Below are positions 8,876 through 41,613 of a stretch of DNA of 64,000 nucleotides, in pieces; the first letter of the stretch is position 1, and every line of letters starts with the position of its first letter. The stretch lies in NCBI RefSeq assembly GCF_053078305.1, contig NZ_CP166879.1. One strand, given 5' to 3'. Under the pieces are notes generated by a model, which was not told the DNA's origin, searched no databases, and saw only the letters and a program-made list of their open reading frames with translations. The position numbers and the translations under genes are program-made.

Positions 8876-9140
8876 GTCCCAGTTTCTCCGCCAGTGCCAG
8901 TTCTGCCTTAGCGCCTGCCGACCGCTGCCAGCCTTTCAGCATATAAACCGCATCCACACAACGAATCATTGCCATGCAAATATCCATGTACTGCGGCTGA
9001 GTCAGCCCGTCCGGAAGTACTGCCGGGTTTAAAACGGTATGCCCTTCCCGTTTCAGTGCTTCTTCCGCCCTGTGAAATGCCTCGCGGTTGAAATTTTCAT
9101 ATCCCGTCATTGGACCGGCGATATAAATGCTCACCCTCAC
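8835..9140 (-). CDS. DUF4406-like (nucleoside 2-deoxyribosyltransferase-like fold) protein
   Basis: 101-aa [16 protein letters not shown]...; small Rossmann-like protein common in phages. Confidence 0.45.
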   Translation of the reverse strand: MRVSIYIAGPMTGYENFNREAFHRAEEALKREGHTVLNPAVLPDGLTQPQYMDICMAMIRCVDAVYMLKGWQRSAGAKAELALAEKLGHAVIFQEATSEKN

Positions 9141-9541
9141 GCCTGAACCCTCCTGTCGAAATAAACGTAGTTATTCACTATGCGCAGCGGCATGCCTAAT
9201 TTTCTGGCAATTTCCCTTCTTTGCATGCCTCTCTGATGCAGTTGCCGCGCCAGCTCAATATCACGCTGAGAATATTTTGCTGACTGGTGATAATCACCCC
9301 GTAACATCATGCTGATACCCAGTTCCCGCGCTTTCGTCCTGACGGCTGACTCACTACGGCCAATCAGATAACCGATGCTTTCGACTCTCATCGTTCCCGC
9401 ACACTGCCGGAGTATCAGGATTTCAGCCCAGCTCCACTTCTTCCAGCCACTCACCGCTGCTGCCCTCTGGTGGCCGTAATATCCCGGAGAATATCCCTGT
9501 GTTTGTTCAGTTCCCGCAGCGCAGCACAGACTCGCTCCCAC
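9137..9541 (-). CDS. Hypothetical HTH-containing protein
   Basis: 134-aa ORF with sigma-70 region-4-like segment ([21 protein letters not shown]); start uncertain because of 91-nt overlap with upstream ORF. Confidence 0.4.
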
Positions 9542-10212
9542 TTCTGAACATCACTTTTCGCCCTGCGCAGCGCCAGGTTTGCCCTGCACAGGGACAGAAA
9601 AATCAGCTCATCTGCTTGCGTTTCGGTAAACGATGGCAACGACTGCACAATGTCCGCCACTGTTTCTGTTTTAATATCTTCCTGTGTTGCAGATTCCTGT
9701 ACTGGTAACGCAACACCTGCTGGCTGAGGAAAGGCCTTACCATCATTTTCCGTTACCGGCACGGCTTTCGGCTCTGCTGGTAAATTATCGCCCGGCATGC
9801 AGTAACGAAATTTACCGTTCTGATTTACGCGTGCCAGGCGTCCCGTTGCGGTTACCACCGCCAACGTGGAAGCAACCTTGCGAATGCTAACACCGAACTT
9901 ATCCGCCAGTTCCTCACACGTTTTAGCCCCCTCCTGACCGATAAACTCAATCATCATGTCTGCGGTAACTTTTTGTTCGACCTCCCCGGTCAGCACATCC
10001 GGTACTTCAGACTGTGCTGGCTGCTCTTCGGTTACCCCGGATTCACCTTCGCCAGCCAGAAACCAGATGTGACCCGCTTTATCAACAACGCCATTTCTTT
10101 TGAGTTCCCACAGTTCGTTGAGAACCTCTTCACGACTGATATCAAGCCGCTCAGCCAGTCCAACAGAGCTGGCTTTTCCCATTGCTTTCAGTGCGTCAAA
10201 AACGGTTTCCAT
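9451..10212 (-). CDS. Hypothetical early protein with N-terminal winged-helix-like domain
   Basis: 253-aa ORF downstream of the P-like gene. Confidence 0.4.
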
Positions 10213-10245: not shown

Positions 10246-10908
10246 TCAAATAAAACCAGCTGCCTTCCGGCGTTCGTATTCCTGTTTCAGCCGTTCAATT
10301 GGCGTTGGCCCTTGCGGGTGTTTCGCCCCTTCCAGTTGTCGTCGCACTGGCGGAACACTCATCCCGTTACCAACATGCTTTGCCCATTTCGTCAGTTGCC
10401 GTTCCGCAAGTCGTTTTAACTCACCCTGCGTCATCTGGCGCTCAATCCCTCTGGTACGCATTTCGAGGCAGATGTGGTACAGCACAGGCTGTGGCCACGG
10501 GTATTTATCACTCCCGTCGTATCGCCAGGATTCATTGCGCCAGCGCCGGTACTCTTCCATCACGGCATCCACCGTAAGACCAAATGGATTTGCCCCACTC
10601 TCCGAAATCAGCGCAACAAACTCAGCCAGGTCCGGGGGCCACGTTTCACCCGCCCGACAGCGGTCCATGCACTGACGGCAGACCTGCCGGATTTGCTGTT
10701 CAGTCATCGCACCAATCTGGGCAATCCAGAGCTTCGAAGGTGCGGCCCCGTTCTTCTGAGTCCAGCGGTTCGAATACACCTCCCCCATAAGCTCCCACAG
10801 CTTCCAGGCCGTTTCCGTTGCTGATAAATCCGTTGTCACGTTCCCACTGTTCGCGTGCTGCCCGGATTTCCTGAACTGCCCGTGATGCCGTGCCACCTGA
10901 TGCTGCAT
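10246..10908 (-). CDS. Replication protein P-like (helicase loader); start uncertain
   Basis: 220-aa ORF resembling lambda P in the segments I recall; no Walker motifs; 209-nt overlap with the O-like gene suggests a later start (ATG at 10788 or 10707). Confidence 0.5.
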   Translation of the reverse strand: MQHQVARHHGQFRKSGQHANSGNVTTDLSATETAWKLWELMGEVYSNRWTQKNGAAPSKLWIAQIGAMTEQQIRQVCRQCMDRCRAGETWPPDLAEFVALISESGANPFGLTVDAVMEEYRRWRNESWRYDGSDKYPWPQPVLYHICLEMRTRGIERQMTQGELKRLAERQLTKWAKHVGNGMSVPPVRRQLEGAKHPQGPTPIERLKQEYERRKAAGFI

Positions 10909-11710
10909 GGCTTACCCCCTTGCTGACTGGTTTTACCTGTGCCCTGACGTGCTGCACGTGGCGGGCAAATTTCTGCTCCCACTGAACCTGCGTGAAAACC
11001 TTCCCCTCCGCCATCCAGTAATCCCGGAATGCGACAAGCTCAGCAGGTGTAAATTCCGGCTCAGGCAGAGCCATACCCCACACTGCTGCCCGTTGTCGAA
11101 AATCCGGCGACGGCTGCCAGACAGTGGTCATCGAAAATTTCCCGATCGGTTCGCTCAGGCCGTCCAGGTATTCAGGTTCGGCTGTCTGCAACGGCGCACC
11201 ATGCAACTCACTGGTCGGAATACTCTCGCGTTCACGCACGTTATGTGTGGGGTTTAATTCTTTTAGATCTGTATCTTTATTAGTTGCTTTTGTGTTTGCG
11301 TCATGTTCAAACACAACACCAACATTTGTTTGAACACCTGTTAAATCTCTCTCTTGTTTTGTTTGAACATATACTTCCTTTCTGCTTCTTCTGGCCTGAA
11401 CAGATGCTTTTCCGGCGGCTGATTTTTTGGTCAATTTTTCCCTGACTGATGCCAGATCTTCCTCAATCCGAAGATGCACCCATTCATCGCCGTTATCGCA
11501 AAAAAACTCACGCAAGGATGGTTCCACATCAGCCCATCGCTCGTTAGTCAGACGGGAAATTTTTGCCAGCCTGTTTTTAGGTATTGGTTTCCCTGTTTGC
11601 CAGTAATTGAACATCAGCAACAAATACGCACCGTGCTCCTCTGCGGACAAATGCATGGTGTCAGCCAGGTAATCAGCTATGTACAGTTGCATGTATGGTA
11701 ATGCGGCCAT
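10700..11710 (-). CDS. Replication initiator O-like / YdaU-like (DUF1376) protein
   Basis: ATG at 11710 gives MAALPYMQLYIADYL... N-terminus; iteron-like repeats lie inside the coding sequence. Confidence 0.6.
   Translation of the reverse strand: MAALPYMQLYIADYLADTMHLSAEEHGAYLLLMFNYWQTGKPIPKNRLAKISRLTNERWADVEPSLREFFCDNGDEWVHLRIEEDLASVREKLTKKSAAGKASVQARRSRKEVYVQTKQERDLTGVQTNVGVVFEHDANTKATNKDTDLKELNPTHNVRERESIPTSELHGAPLQTAEPEYLDGLSEPIGKFSMTTVWQPSPDFRQRAAVWGMALPEPEFTPAELVAFRDYWMAEGKVFTQVQWEQKFARHVQHVRAQVKPVSKGVSHAASGGTASRAVQEIRAAREQWERDNGFISNGNGLEAVGAYGGGVFEPLDSEERGRTFEALDCPDWCDD
11300..11372. repeat. Putative replication origin iterons
   Basis: Three copies of TGTTYRAACA (11304-11313, 11327-11336, 11361-11370) followed by AT-rich DNA, inside the O-like gene. 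Confidence 0.4.
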
Positions 11711-11796
11711 AATTGCCTCATCTTGTGACGAACCATCCTCTGGTGATATTCTGTGATTCCCCAATCAACAGAATCAGCAGGGGGCTGGCATAAATA

Positions 11797-12566: not shown

Positions 12567-12617
12567 ACTTATCAATTTTTTCTGTAGGATCGCGGAACTA
12601 GTTTACGAGGGGTGGTG

Positions 12618-13010
12618 ATGATCTTTGTAAAACGCCTTCAGCAGGTGTTGCAGGAATTGAATATAAACCAGTCAGAGCTGGGAAGACGTCTTGGTGTAAA
12701 ACCCCAATCCGTGCAAGGTTGGTTGAAAGGCGTGATGCCAAGAATGGATAAACTGGAAAAATTAGCAGAGCTCTCACAACATCCCGTCCATTGGTTCTTT
12801 ATGGAAGAAGAAACTCTCGGCGATAAAATGGCTGTATCCAGTAATGACAACCAACCGCAACTTACAGAACAACAACGAAAAATCATATCGCTTTTAGATG
12901 AGTTACCTCAAAGCGACGCAGAGCAGATCATTCGTGATATGGAGCAAAAACGCGATTTCTATAAACGGAAACTTGAAGAGTTACTGCGGCAGAAAAACAA
13001 AACTGCCTGA
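12618..13010 (+). CDS. cI-like repressor (RacR-like, HTH only, no peptidase domain)
   Basis: 130-aa product from ATG 12618 (track ORF begins at GTG 12612); XRE HTH NQSELGRRLGVKPQSVQGW; RBS GAGGGG upstream. Confidence 0.6.
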   Translation: MIFVKRLQQVLQELNINQSELGRRLGVKPQSVQGWLKGVMPRMDKLEKLAELSQHPVHWFFMEEETLGDKMAVSSNDNQPQLTEQQRKIISLLDELPQSDAEQIIRDMEQKRDFYKRKLEELLRQKNKTA

Positions 13011-38322: not shown

Positions 38323-39576
38323 TCAGGACTCCTCATGCTCTGATTCAGGTTGACGATCCCACGACAAACGCGGGTCAAACGTCATAGCAGAAAACATTGT
38401 CATTATGACGACTAAAGCAAACATTAATGCACCCATTGCCGGATAAATACTCATTAAACCTCCCATACGCACCAGCGCCGAGAGCACCGCGATAACGAAA
38501 ACGTCAATCATCGACCAGCGGCCTACAAACTCAACAACTTCATAAATCAAATGCATTCTTTCACTGTCGCGCTTGCCATGCCCTTTGGCATCCCAACACA
38601 GCCACGCGATGGCGATCATCTTTAACGTTGGCACCATAATACTGGCAAGGAAGATCACCGCAGCGACGGGATAAGAGCCTTCACTCCATAACAGGATGAC
38701 CCCAGCGAGAATCGTCGATGGCATCTTCGAGCCTAATAAATCCGTCACCATGATGGGCAAAATATTAGCCGGAAGATACAGCATGATGGACGTAACAAGC
38801 AGCGCGAGTGTCCATTGCAGGCTGTTTCTACGTCGAACGTACCCTTTGGTACTACAACGCGGGCACACGGGTTCGTCAGCAGGAAGGATTGCCGTACAAC
38901 AGGAGCACGAACGCAGCCCCTGACGTATCCCCGTGACGCCTGGTTTTAGCGGCTGGCGCAGTTCTGGCATCGGGGCGATATCGTCCCATAACCAGCGACG
39001 ATCAACGCACTGAAAAGCACGCAGTTGCAGGACACAAAATAAACACCAGGGGAGAAAGCTGCTGCCTACGCCAATGCTGCCGTAAGCCATCAGTTTAACG
39101 AAACTGACCAGCACACCCGCGAGGAAAATCTCCGCCATTCCCCAGGTTTTGAGTTGAAAAAGCACCCGTGCCAGTTGCTCTTTTAAACGGACCGGTAATT
39201 CCGCGCGATTCACCAGTAACAGAATGGTTATCAGACAAAACGCGGGAACCAGTTGCACAAACAACAGGAAAAAGGTGCCGAGGCTGGCGTAGTCCTCAGA
39301 AAAAAGCACGCCGGGAATTTCCAGTAATGTAATTTCACTGGTAACTCCTGCAACGTTCATATTCACAAAAGGAAACAAGTTGGACAGCAACAGCATGAAC
39401 AGTGCAGCCAACGCATAGGCGGTAGGACGCTGCCGGGGGGCATCCCACGCCACGGTTAACGTTGTGCCACACCGGGGACATGCCGCTTTCTGACCATGCT
39501 CAAGGCGCGGTAACGCCACCAGCATGTCACACTGCGAGCACAGGATGTGCTTCGCGGCATGATGATGTTCGCACAT
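38323..39576 (-). CDS. pqiA: Intermembrane transport protein PqiA
   Basis: 417-aa polytopic membrane ORF; K-12 synteny. Confidence 0.95.
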   Translation of the reverse strand: MCEHHHAAKHILCSQCDMLVALPRLEHGQKAACPRCGTTLTVAWDAPRQRPTAYALAALFMLLLSNLFPFVNMNVAGVTSEITLLEIPGVLFSEDYASLGTFFLLFVQLVPAFCLITILLLVNRAELPVRLKEQLARVLFQLKTWGMAEIFLAGVLVSFVKLMAYGSIGVGSSFLPWCLFCVLQLRAFQCVDRRWLWDDIAPMPELRQPLKPGVTGIRQGLRSCSCCTAILPADEPVCPRCSTKGYVRRRNSLQWTLALLVTSIMLYLPANILPIMVTDLLGSKMPSTILAGVILLWSEGSYPVAAVIFLASIMVPTLKMIAIAWLCWDAKGHGKRDSERMHLIYEVVEFVGRWSMIDVFVIAVLSALVRMGGLMSIYPAMGALMFALVVIMTMFSAMTFDPRLSWDRQPESEHEES

Positions 39577-39705
39577 TGGTACTCCTTAATGATGCGCTAT
39601 TTTACAGATGACTAACAAAGTGTTGGTTTTCATGCCTGATAAACCCAGTTCATCAGGCAATTTTACCGTTGTCAGCTGTCTCTGTTTAAATCGACTATTT
39701 TGCGA

Positions 39706-41613
39706 TCAGCCACCATTTTTTAACGCTTCAAGATACTCCCAGCGTTCAAAGGCTTGCTCCAGCTCCTGCTCTGCAGCAGCCATATCAGCGAGCACTTTTT
39801 GTGTCTGCTCATGCGGCTGACTGAAGAAGGAAGCATCCGCCACCTGCGTCTGTAGGGCTTCCAGCTTCGCCTCCAGATCTTCGAGCAATTGCGGTAGCTG
39901 CTCCAGTTCGCGCTGCAATTTATAGCTTAGTTTGCTACTGCTGCGTTTTACAGTTTCTGCTTTTGGCGCGGCGGCTTCTTCGTTTTTTTTCACCGCAGGC
40001 TGTTTGAGCGCCACATACTGCTCTTGCTGACCACGGGCGTCATGATAACCGCCGACATAACGACCAATTTTACCGCCGCCTTCGAAGATCCAGCATTCTG
40101 TAACGGTGTTATCAACAAACTGACGATCGTGGCTTACCAGCAATACCGTGCCCTGGTAGCTGTCGATCAGTTCTTCCAGCAGCTCCAGCGTTTCGACATC
40201 AAGATCGTTGGTCGGTTCGTCAAGAATCAATAAGTTGCTTGGTTTGAGGAACAAACGCGCCAGCAGCAAGCGGTTCCGCTCACCGCCAGAAAGCGCACGT
40301 ACTGGCGTCATCGCCCGTTTCGGATGGAACAGGAAGTCCTGCAAATAGCCCAAAACGTGGCGTGGCTTGCCGTTAACCATCACCTCTTGCTTACCTTCGG
40401 CAAGGTTATCCATCACCGTTTTATCGGGATCAAGTTCCGCGCGGTGCTGATCGAAATAAGCCACTTCCAGTTTGGTGCCAACGTGAATACGCCCGCTGTC
40501 CGCTTGAAGCTGACCGAGCATCAGTTTCAGCAGCGTGGTTTTGCCGCAGCCATTCGACCCAATCAGGGCAATTTTGTCGCCACGTAGAACCTGGGCAGAA
40601 AAATCTTTCACCAGTTGCTTTCCGTCAACCTGGTAGCAAACGTCTTCCATTTCGAAAACGATCTTACCGGAGCGGCTGGCCTCTTCCACCTGCATCTTTG
40701 CGGTACCCATCACTTCGCGACGTTCGCCACGCTCGCGACGCATCGCTTTCAGGGCGCGTACGCGGCCTTCATTACGGGTACGGCGTGCTTTGATCCCCTG
40801 GCGAATCCACACTTCTTCCTGCGCCAGTTTGCGATCGAACTCGGCATTTTGTAGTTCTTCCACGCGCAGGGCTTCTTCTTTTTCCAGCAGGTACTGATCG
40901 TAATTGCCCGGATAGGTCACCAGCTTGCCGCGATCGAGATCAACAATGCGCGTCGCCATATTGCGGATAAACGAACGGTCGTGGGAGATGAAAATAATCG
41001 TCCCATTGAAGGTTTTAAGGAACCCCTCCAGCCAGTCGATGGTTTCGATATCCAGATGGTTAGTCGGTTCGTCCAGCAGCAATACGCGCGGATTGCTCAC
41101 CAGCGCGCGTCCTAATGCCGCTTTACGCAACCAGCCGCCGGAAAGCGACGACAGCGCAACGTTAGGATCTAACCCCAGTTGCGCCAGCACTTCGTTGATG
41201 CGGTTTTCCAGCTGCCACAGGTTGTGGTGATCCAGCTGTTCCTGAACCTTTGCCAGTTCGTTGAGATTTTTCTCGCTCGGGTCGTTCATCACCAGGCGCG
41301 AAATATCGTGATAGCGTTTCAGGTATTCCGCTTGTTCTTCAATGCCTTCGGCAACGAAATCATAAACACTACCCTCAACGTTACGCGGCGGATCCTGTTG
41401 CAGACGCGCTACAATCAAATCCTGCTCGTAAATAATGCGACCGTCATCCAGCCCTTGTTCACGGTTGAGGATTTTCATTAACGTCGATTTGCCTGCGCCG
41501 TTGCGGCCCACCAGACAAACACGTTCGTTATCTTCGATATGCAGTTCTGCGTTATCGAGAAGCGGCGCGTCGCTGAACGACAGCCATGCGCCATGCATAC
41601 TGATTAATGACAT
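39706..41613 (-). CDS. uup: ABC-F ATPase Uup
   Basis: 635-aa ORF with two ABC cassettes and C-terminal coiled coil. Confidence 0.95.
   Translation of the reverse strand: MSLISMHGAWLSFSDAPLLDNAELHIEDNERVCLVGRNGAGKSTLMKILNREQGLDDGRIIYEQDLIVARLQQDPPRNVEGSVYDFVAEGIEEQAEYLKRYHDISRLVMNDPSEKNLNELAKVQEQLDHHNLWQLENRINEVLAQLGLDPNVALSSLSGGWLRKAALGRALVSNPRVLLLDEPTNHLDIETIDWLEGFLKTFNGTIIFISHDRSFIRNMATRIVDLDRGKLVTYPGNYDQYLLEKEEALRVEELQNAEFDRKLAQEEVWIRQGIKARRTRNEGRVRALKAMRRERGERREVMGTAKMQVEEASRSGKIVFEMEDVCYQVDGKQLVKDFSAQVLRGDKIALIGSNGCGKTTLLKLMLGQLQADSGRIHVGTKLEVAYFDQHRAELDPDKTVMDNLAEGKQEVMVNGKPRHVLGYLQDFLFHPKRAMTPVRALSGGERNRLLLARLFLKPSNLLILDEPTNDLDVETLELLEELIDSYQGTVLLVSHDRQFVDNTVTECWIFEGGGKIGRYVGGYHDARGQQEQYVALKQPAVKKNEEAAAPKAETVKRSSSKLSYKLQRELEQLPQLLEDLEAKLEALQTQVADASFFSQPHEQTQKVLADMAAAEQELEQAFERWEYLEALKNGG

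Follow-up and report, generated by a model that had tools for sequence, protein, structure and literature searches.

Where does the gene for a putative helicase loader begin when its open reading frame (ORF) reaches more than two hundred nucleotides back into the gene that precedes it? The question is raised by a replication module in contig NZ_CP166879.1 (RefSeq assembly GCF_053078305.1), of which a stretch of 64,000 nucleotides, referred to here as the window, was analysed. Together with their neighbours, an O-like replication initiator gene and a P-like helicase loader gene make up the early-right region of an E. coli prophage that is lambdoid (Rac/PPompW-type). An earlier sequence-only reading of the window had placed the end of the O-like gene at 10700 and the start of the longest P-like ORF at 10908, with an overlap of 209 nt, and all three values were found to be exact on the minus strand (10908-10700+1 = 209 nt). 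It had also described lambda O and P as adjacent without extensive overlap, which agrees with the lambda coordinates (O 38686-39585, P 39582-40283) where only 4 nt are shared. Two possibilities were offered, either that P starts at a downstream ATG (10788 or 10707) or that the region encodes overlapping products. The latter is supported by the present analysis, whereas the start at 10707 appears to be wrong and the start at 10788 unlikely.

The O-like initiator gene (10700..11710, minus strand) encodes 336 amino acids from the ATG at 11710 to the TGA at 10702-10700, as derived from the ORF list and the sequence, and the same coding sequence is found in RefSeq. With its start revised to the ATG at 10908-10906, the lambda-P-like helicase loader gene (10246..10908, minus strand) would encode 220 amino acids and its product matches the PF06992 family. 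The dual-coding overlap (10700..10908, minus strand) holds the last 69 codons of O and the first 69-70 codons of P, with the O frame being the P frame +2, an offset of one base. Comparison with homologous loci strongly supports a real overlap in which P starts at 10908 and the two frames trade constraint along the shared DNA. From the sequence comparisons and the structure models taken together, we consider it quite probable that the O and P genes genuinely overlap, that P begins at 10908, and that the shared DNA is passed on as one block, and this is the explanation favoured here.

The start of the loader gene

The comparison set consisted of 28 non-identical homologous loci from about 15 genera, in which P identity ranges from 40% to 96%; it includes one genome per species of Citrobacter, Klebsiella, Pluralibacter, Phytobacter, Kluyvera, Pectobacterium, Serratia, Yersinia, Erwinia, Samsonia and others. 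An equivalent of the overlap, 161-242 nt in length, was found in these 28 loci. Shine-Dalgarno strength was expressed as the energy of the duplex with the 3' end of the 16S rRNA and ranked against all positions of the region. In the window, the Shine-Dalgarno-like sequence AAGGGGGT (10914..10921, minus strand) is located inside the O coding sequence with 6 nt from its last G to the ATG, and its duplex energy of -11.8 kcal/mol belongs to the top 0.9% of regional positions. The sites equivalent to 10908 have a median duplex energy of -10.2 kcal/mol (top 1.6% of positions), with 26 of the 28 loci falling in the top 5% of their local positions, and GGAGG, GAGGT or GGGGG is typically observed 5-9 nt before the first ATG of the open P frame. 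At the equivalents of Met41 (10788) the median is -4.5 kcal/mol (19th percentile), while at those of Met68 (10707) it is -2.2 kcal/mol (57th percentile) with no Shine-Dalgarno sequence; the 10707 site of the window itself, at -2.1 kcal/mol (62nd percentile of positions), also has none. Inspection of the candidate ribosome-binding sites, which the sequence-only reading had suggested as a check, hence showed a strong site at 10908, a weak one at 10788 and none at 10707.

The O frame reads the ATG at 10906..10908 (minus strand) as part of the codons CAT|GCA (His-Ala). Across the 21 representative lineages, namely the 20 tabulated ones and the window, the O codon lying over the P ATG was found without exception to be NAT followed by a codon starting with G. 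This codon is CAT (His) in the window, and among the 20 other lineages it is CAT (His) in nine, AAT (Asn) in nine, TAT (Tyr) in one and GAT (Asp) in one; the O residue at this position changes among lineages and yet the T is never replaced by the synonymous C. The first of the two internal ATGs in the P frame, Met41 (10786..10788, minus strand), is located within the model helix formed by residues 28-45 and is ATG in 27 of the 28 loci, the remaining one (L024) having CTG (Leu). The second, Met68 (10705..10707, minus strand), lies within ATGACTGA and is the start used in RefSeq and GenBank, where it gives a protein of 153 amino acids and an overlap of 8 nt with O. It is ATG in 22 of the 28 loci, CTG, TTC, TGC or CTC in five and TTG in one. 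Both of these positions are Leu in the homologue from Vibrio phage D67. Two GTG codons at 10896 and 10839 were also tried as starts and were rejected because other lineages have not kept them.

Invariant residues in the alignments of 28 and 35 P proteins include W38, R48, W49, K52, N53, G54, P57 and W61, all eight of them upstream of Met68. W35 and W38 also precede Met41, and their conservation comes at a cost to the O frame. Opposite a P tryptophan codon (TGG), the O residues are limited to those having xTG codons (Leu, Met and Val) and the next O codon starts with G; since the O residues vary only within these limits, P is the constrained frame at these positions.

The ratio of nonsynonymous to synonymous differences per site (pN/pS) was calculated by the Nei-Gojobori method for 12 ungapped loci, leaving out the O-only control block D, which is misaligned by indels. 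P residues 34-67 (AWKLWELMGEVYSNRWTQKNGAAPSKLWIAQIGA; 10708..10809, minus strand) contribute the first predicted helices of domain II, and the O sequence opposite them is the end of the O tail, which is rich in Gly, acidic and under weak constraint. Over residues 34-66, pN/pS is 0.17 in the P frame, 2.07 in the O frame and 1.61 in the third frame, and the P-frame value is on a par with that of non-overlapping P (0.205, with approximately 1.8 in both the O frame and the third frame). Over P residues 8-33, on the other hand, the values are 0.91 in the P frame, 0.47 in the O frame and 1.46 in the third frame, which here has many stops. Purifying selection can be seen in each of the two frames somewhere in the overlap, for O in the helix block (0.47) and for P in residues 34-66 (0.17), while the third frame stays at approximately 1.5-1.6.

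The P protein appears to be a helicase loader of the lambda P family with a putative role in the loading of DnaB. Its match to Pfam PF06992 (Phage_lambda_P) scores 59.3 bits against a gathering cut-off of 26, with residues 55-187 corresponding to profile positions 28-161 of 162, and a profile search of the PDB found lambda P at E 7e-7; NCBIfam has no model for this protein. The AlphaFold2 model of the 220-residue P has a predicted local distance difference test score (pLDDT) of 76.7. Residues 1-27 are disordered in the model (pLDDT below 50 for residues 1-25) and are followed by helices at residues 28-45, 47-53, 59-66, 70-85, 94-103, 113-129, 141-157, 161-180 and 203-216. The top PDB matches of this model in Foldseek were the lambda P chains 9oa1_Y/Z/V, taken from the complex between DnaB and lambda P, over 196 aligned columns, and in the case of 9oa1_Y all 196 residues were aligned (E 1.7e-5).

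Lambda P consists of an N-terminal lasso that is disordered in solution (domain I, residues 1-29/39), domain II (approximately 30-119), domain III (120-192) and a C-terminal lasso (domain IV, 193-233) (PMC12661323). The model strongly supports the same layout for the P of the window, with a lasso at residues 1-27, domain II at approximately 28-105, domain III at approximately 113-180 and a C-terminal lasso helix at 203-216; the alignment of domain II with that of lambda P comes from fold comparison only. The four-part architecture is obtained only with the start at 10908. According to the model, a start at 10707 would remove domain I and three of the five helices of domain II, while a start at 10788 would cut the first helix (28-45) in half. 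In lambda P, a deletion of residues 9-86 abolishes the initiation of replication (PMC3640518). The ribosome-binding site, the start codon, the internal ATGs, the conservation, the substitution pattern and the predicted fold together give us high confidence that ATG 10908 would be the main start of P.

The initiator and its tail

In the O-like protein, Pfam identifies a DUF1376 domain (PF07120) at residues 5-87 (5e-26) and a DnaT-like DNA-binding domain (PF17948) at residues 192-258 (1e-16), and NCBIfam gives a partial DnaT match. The Pfam search found no match to the lambda O family (PF04492, Phage_rep_O), which represents the N-terminal winged-helix origin-binding domain. The label 'P-like' given by the sequence-only reading was borne out by the PF06992 match, whereas 'O-like' holds for the position and role of the gene but not for its family, which is of the DUF1376 plus DnaT-like type.

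After the DnaT-like domain, the protein continues for 69 codons past the start of P and ends in a C-terminus made up of a helix and a tail. The conserved helix SRAVQEIRAAREQWER (10838..10885, minus strand, O frame) sits over the variable N-terminus of P; the segment encoding P residues 1-27 (10828..10908, minus strand) is poorly conserved, is predicted to be disordered and would be the counterpart of the domain I lasso of lambda P. The helix has an O-frame pN/pS of 0.47 and an amino-acid identity of 0.64, and it is kept in initiators with unrelated upstream domains. It was also predicted to be helical (pLDDT 81-85) in an AlphaFold2 model of a fusion in which P was joined to the O tail by a Gly-Ser linker, with pLDDT falling below 50 beyond the helix.

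Beyond the helix, what appears to be preserved in the O frame is its openness. With random synonymous recoding of P, the O frame would stay open from P residue 34 to the O stop with a probability of 0.09-0.30 per lineage, which sums over 21 lineages to a log10 of -15 if these are taken as independent, so that the observed openness goes far beyond chance expectation. The synonymous sites of the P frame are near saturation there (normalised entropy 0.82), which makes the lineages effectively independent of one another at these positions. In non-overlapping P, 28% of the at-risk codons (167/593) end in T and so make stops in the O-equivalent frame. The count of such stops inside overlap block B is zero by construction, as the block ends at the first O stop, and it was used only along with the 28% rate and the turnover of the codons. 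Within the overlap, at-risk codons end in G, C or A with a strong bias towards G (62/96, compared with 102/426 non-T sites in P-only sequence), and those ending in G give Glu or Gly in the O frame. The O stop always precedes the WPPD motif of P by 34-91 nt, with 58 nt the commonest value, and most lineages have it no more than a few nucleotides from the Met68 codon. In no lineage does the initiator end before the G..FEPLD.EE segment. We infer from these patterns that the O tail has been selected to stay open, acidic and tolerant of sequence change, and that it is probably disordered.

A programmed frameshift fusing O and P was considered and rejected. It would need a +1 shift from the O frame, and no conserved slippery motif was seen. 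A fusion or interruption of the P and O frames is present in the Leclercia adecarboxylata locus (L021) and in protein P0106, with for example ...TAWHLWQVMGGNILEPVDAEEW... passing from the P to the O frame; both are probably indels or pseudogenes and not programmed frameshifts.

Two further observations concern the upstream part of the O-like gene. Its longest ORF begins at a TTG at 11764, while the conserved start, which is also that of RefSeq, is the ATG at 11710 (MAALPYMQ) with GAGG 7 nt upstream. An AT-rich dip (GC content 0.33; 11250-11370, minus strand) falls in the linker that joins the DUF1376 domain to the DnaT-like domain and contains three copies of TGTTCAAACA/TGTTTGAACA at 11304-11313, 11327-11336 and 11360-11369. 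By analogy with ori-lambda, which lies inside gene O, this repeat stretch is a candidate iteron or origin region.

Annotated starts and alternative explanations

The P-O module was matched in 1833 of 5426 complete E. coli genomes, and the start of P is unsettled across public records. All four RefSeq records inspected, annotated by the Prokaryotic Genome Annotation Pipeline (PGAP), begin P at the 10707-equivalent ATG with a coding sequence of 462 nt, a product of 153 amino acids and an overlap of 8 nt. The GenBank phage records Rac-SA53 and vB_Apl-pPE4 also begin P there, and the Stx2_14040 phage record starts it still further downstream (140 amino acids). P homologues of 177-181 amino acids are named 'replication protein P' by PGAP in Salmonella, Citrobacter and Klebsiella, and the aligned homologues of 180-181 amino acids begin at Met41, the 10788 equivalent. 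Other calls have 188-189 amino acids and begin with 'MAW' (Pectobacterium-type) or have 216-223 amino acids (other pipelines). The annotated loader lacks at least the N-terminal 67 residues in all four RefSeq and three phage records inspected, and structural or functional work on the 153-residue form would handle a fragment without the lasso and half of domain II. Widespread mis-annotation of the loader N-terminus is the main practical consequence of our analysis.

The annotated start describes P as beginning at ATG 10707, the two genes being ordinary translationally coupled neighbours that share the 8 nt of ATGACTGA, with the open frame upstream being fortuitous. It is backed by the 462-nt coding sequence that PGAP and the GenBank submitters give in every close relative examined, by an ATG 2 nt from the O stop, which is the classic geometry for coupling, and by the presence of ATG at this codon in 22 of the 28 loci. 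We nevertheless regard it as highly improbable, and the comparative data contradict it. A clear translation start at 10707 was the outcome that the sequence-only reading had set against an extensive overlap, and although this start is the one in the records, it has no Shine-Dalgarno sequence, its codon is not a start codon in five of the 28 loci and is Leu in D67, and eight invariant P residues as well as the P-frame pN/pS of 0.17 lie upstream of it. The product would also be deprived of the lasso and of three out of five helices in domain II, and the equivalent deletion in lambda P (residues 9-86) is replication-dead (PMC3640518). A model of coupled neighbours with a trivial overlap of 4-8 nt does not describe these loci, in which the start is not conserved and conserved protein sequence is found upstream of it. 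A start at ATG 10788 (Met41), giving 180 amino acids and an overlap of 89 nt, is very unlikely, even though this ATG is present in 27 of the 28 loci, is preceded in the window by GGGAG at 3 nt (-6.1 kcal/mol) and is the first codon of the aligned examples among the many database proteins of 177-181 amino acids. Its Shine-Dalgarno sequence is weak and not conserved, the residues A34, W35 and W38, which precede Met41, are kept at a cost to the O frame, Met41 is placed in the middle of a helix in the model, the codon is CTG in L024 and Leu in D67, and the Pectobacterium-type annotations begin upstream of it. Between these positions stands the possibility that P has two or more isoforms, a full-length protein from 10908 and a shorter regulator made from 10788 or by termination and reinitiation at 10707. 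Dual-start phage genes have a precedent in the S107/S105 pair of lambda, both internal ATGs are fairly well conserved, and the O stop lies close to the Met68 codon in most lineages. However, conserved methionines inside helices require no explanation as start codons, no conserved Shine-Dalgarno sequence was found at either internal ATG, and both ATGs are missing in some lineages and in D67; we consider such isoforms unlikely.

Several observations weigh against the overlap with P beginning at 10908 as we have described it. All seven annotated records inspected (four RefSeq and three phage) put the P start at 10707 or later, and the conservation of the Met41 ATG is compatible with a second, shorter isoform. 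P residues 8-33 are under little amino-acid constraint, as their pN/pS of 0.91 indicates, and the openness of the P frame over residues 1-33 is only modestly surprising given the O protein (summed log10 -3.6). The Foldseek TM-score against lambda P is modest (0.44-0.49), and phmmer, the hmmsearch profile and hhalign align only residues 83-197 to lambda P, with the N-terminal 80 residues unaligned. On the side of the initiator, the O tail beyond the helix (NGFISNGNGLEAVGAYGGGVFEPLDSEERGRTFEALDCPDWCDD) shows no constraint at the amino-acid level (pN/pS 2.07), its FEPLD and LD..DW motifs can be by-products of conserved P residues, and P-frame synonymous variability was not significantly reduced in the overlap (normalised third-base entropy 0.82 vs 0.87, p=0.24). 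The linker-fusion model, obtained without coordinates or predicted aligned error and with partners that share nucleotides so that the paired alignment is confounded, says nothing on the docking of the O helix to P. Some of these points would fit an overlap that is real but in which the O tail past the helix is a functionless run-on to a chance stop, with only linkage or expression coupling being selected. The O-frame pN/pS over P residues 34-66 resembles that of a non-coding frame, the synonymous entropy of the P frame shows no significant drop, the motifs of the tail can be predicted from the conserved codons of P, the length of the tail varies with the position of the O stop, and the pLDDT is below 50 beyond the helix. 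We take this to be a serious possibility that falls short of an even chance, because stops are avoided in every lineage where 28% of the equivalent P-only sites have them, the at-risk codons are biased towards the G endings that give Glu or Gly in O, and no initiator ends before the G..FEPLD.EE segment.

Inheritance of the shared DNA and related systems

With P beginning at 10908, ribosomes would start the loader via a Shine-Dalgarno sequence inside the initiator coding sequence and make a protein of 220 amino acids, while translation of the initiator would go on in the other frame for a further 69 codons, up to its end at 10700. The constraint is split between the two proteins, the conserved C-terminal helix of the initiator lying over the variable loader N-terminus and the conserved first domain II helices of the loader lying over the sequence-tolerant initiator tail. 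As one stretch of DNA encodes both the initiator's end and the loader's beginning, the two would be inherited as a single block, which appears to have been joined to at least five types of origin-binding N-terminal and middle domains. Initiators ending in the shared tail were found to have DUF1376 with DnaT, HTH_36 with DnaT, other N-domains with DnaT, PF04492 without DnaT, or DUF1376 without DnaT, and three have no Pfam match. In one locus (L022), PF04492, the true lambda O N-domain, is joined to the same helix and tail. The reason why these different initiator types share the helix and tail is that the segment in question is a reading of the P gene's 5' end in another frame.

The loader can also be divided in another way. 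The P proteins of phi80 (gp14, gene 14) and HK225 (L038) have only residues 92-220 in common with the P of the window, at 46% identity, and their N-terminal 90 residues are replaced, so that the N-terminal 90 residues of the loader represent its exchangeable, initiator-specific part. A mosaic boundary at the domain level is observed inside the loader at approximately residue 90 when the phi80-type P is compared with that of the window.

The lambda O-P pair has the same order of initiator followed by loader, and its loader is likewise a PF06992 protein with the four-part fold. The overlap in lambda is 4 nt compared with 209 nt in the window, lambda O is a PF04492 protein with a folded C-terminal domain in place of the DUF1376 and DnaT-like domains and the short helix and tail, and the N-terminal 80 residues of the window P cannot be aligned to lambda P by sequence. 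Lambda also has an O' read-through product which, in the account of Yates et al. (1977) as cited in PMC3640518, extends 34 codons past the UGA into the 5' part of P. Like the O protein of the window, O' is an initiator that continues in its own frame into the P gene. It needs read-through of a stop codon and is a minor product, whereas the window has a constitutive, conserved extension of twice the length; there is no sequence similarity between the two. Uetakevirus phages such as Escherichia phage phiv142-3 have a helix-turn-helix plus DnaT-like initiator directly before a lambda-P-family loader, as in the window. In these phages the initiator stops just after the DnaT domain without a tail, the overlap is 4 nt, and the loader is 27% identical to the P of the window; the long overlap therefore belongs to the loader subfamily of the window and not to every DnaT-type module.

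Vibrio phage D67 (L037, OZ195694.1) contains an O-like ORF (753-1613) and an ORF of 219 amino acids (1402-2061) that overlap by 212 nt with the same frame relation as in the window. The 219-residue product is 36% identical to the window P over residues 33-131 and has a leader of 33-34 residues, compared with 33 in the window; Vibrio phage homologues align to the window P from residue 33 (E 6e-16; E 8e-24). The O tail of D67 ends in EERGGSFIDLDNGDW. The C-terminal half of the 219-residue product is unrelated by sequence to domains III-IV of lambda P and has no Pfam match, the Shine-Dalgarno sequence at the first ATG is weak, and GenBank annotates only 1735-2061 (the last 108 amino acids). A relationship of this type of ORF to the VdhL helicase loaders (PMC11087808) is possible. 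Judged by these sequence comparisons, the long O/P overlap is conserved from enterobacteria to Vibrio phages. A further module, 77% identical to the E. coli-type P, was found on a 560-bp contig labelled Vibrio sinaloensis (L019), which is too short to distinguish contamination from transfer.

Long same-strand overlaps are also known among the genes of phiX174 and in the Rz/Rz1 pair of lambda, where one frame usually bears most of the constraint at a given position, and textbook phage overlaps have one gene embedded in another. The overlap in the window differs from those of phiX174 and Rz/Rz1 in that it joins the termini of two partner proteins and the constraint changes frame midway. We found no description of this O/P overlap in the literature. 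It amounts to a dual-coding overlap, long and conserved, inside a replication module of the lambda type, which is a known type of system and not a new one, and it provides a deeply conserved case of two replication partner proteins that share DNA at their termini with the constraint handed between frames.

In lambda, the C-terminal region of O and the N-terminal lassos of P are the proposed contacts, with the lassos proposed to engage O (PMC12661323). By analogy, the C-terminal end of the initiator and the loader N-terminus would be the likeliest contact surfaces between initiator and loader here, and the location of these surfaces in shared DNA would explain why the block is never split. This leads to a tentative idea, possible although we would not expect it to be correct, that the overlap is a portable specificity cassette of approximately 200 nt which encodes both halves of the initiator-loader interface in two frames, with the initiator supplying its C-terminal helix and acidic tail as one half and the loader its N-terminal lasso and first domain II helices as the other. 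If so, recombination could never part the matching proteins, and fusion of any origin-binding domain upstream would by itself confer on that domain the recruitment of this loader. It would also account for the common tail on at least five unrelated initiator architectures and for the spread from Enterobacterales prophages to Vibrio phages. The overlap offers a testable idea of how initiator-loader specificity could survive the mosaic recombination of lambdoid phages, and the frame offset permits mutations that leave one protein unchanged while disrupting the other.

The neighbouring genes of the module include a DicA/cI-like repressor gene (12612-13010, plus strand), a Cro/DicC-like gene (12491-12231, minus strand) and a YdaT-family gene (12234-11797, minus strand). 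The neighbour downstream of the P-like gene is a DUF1627 gene (10212-9451, minus strand). A similar question of start or overlap may arise in this operon for the ORF downstream of the DUF1627 gene (9137-9541, minus strand), which, if begun at the GTG at 9541, would share 91 nt with this DUF1627 gene (9451-10212).

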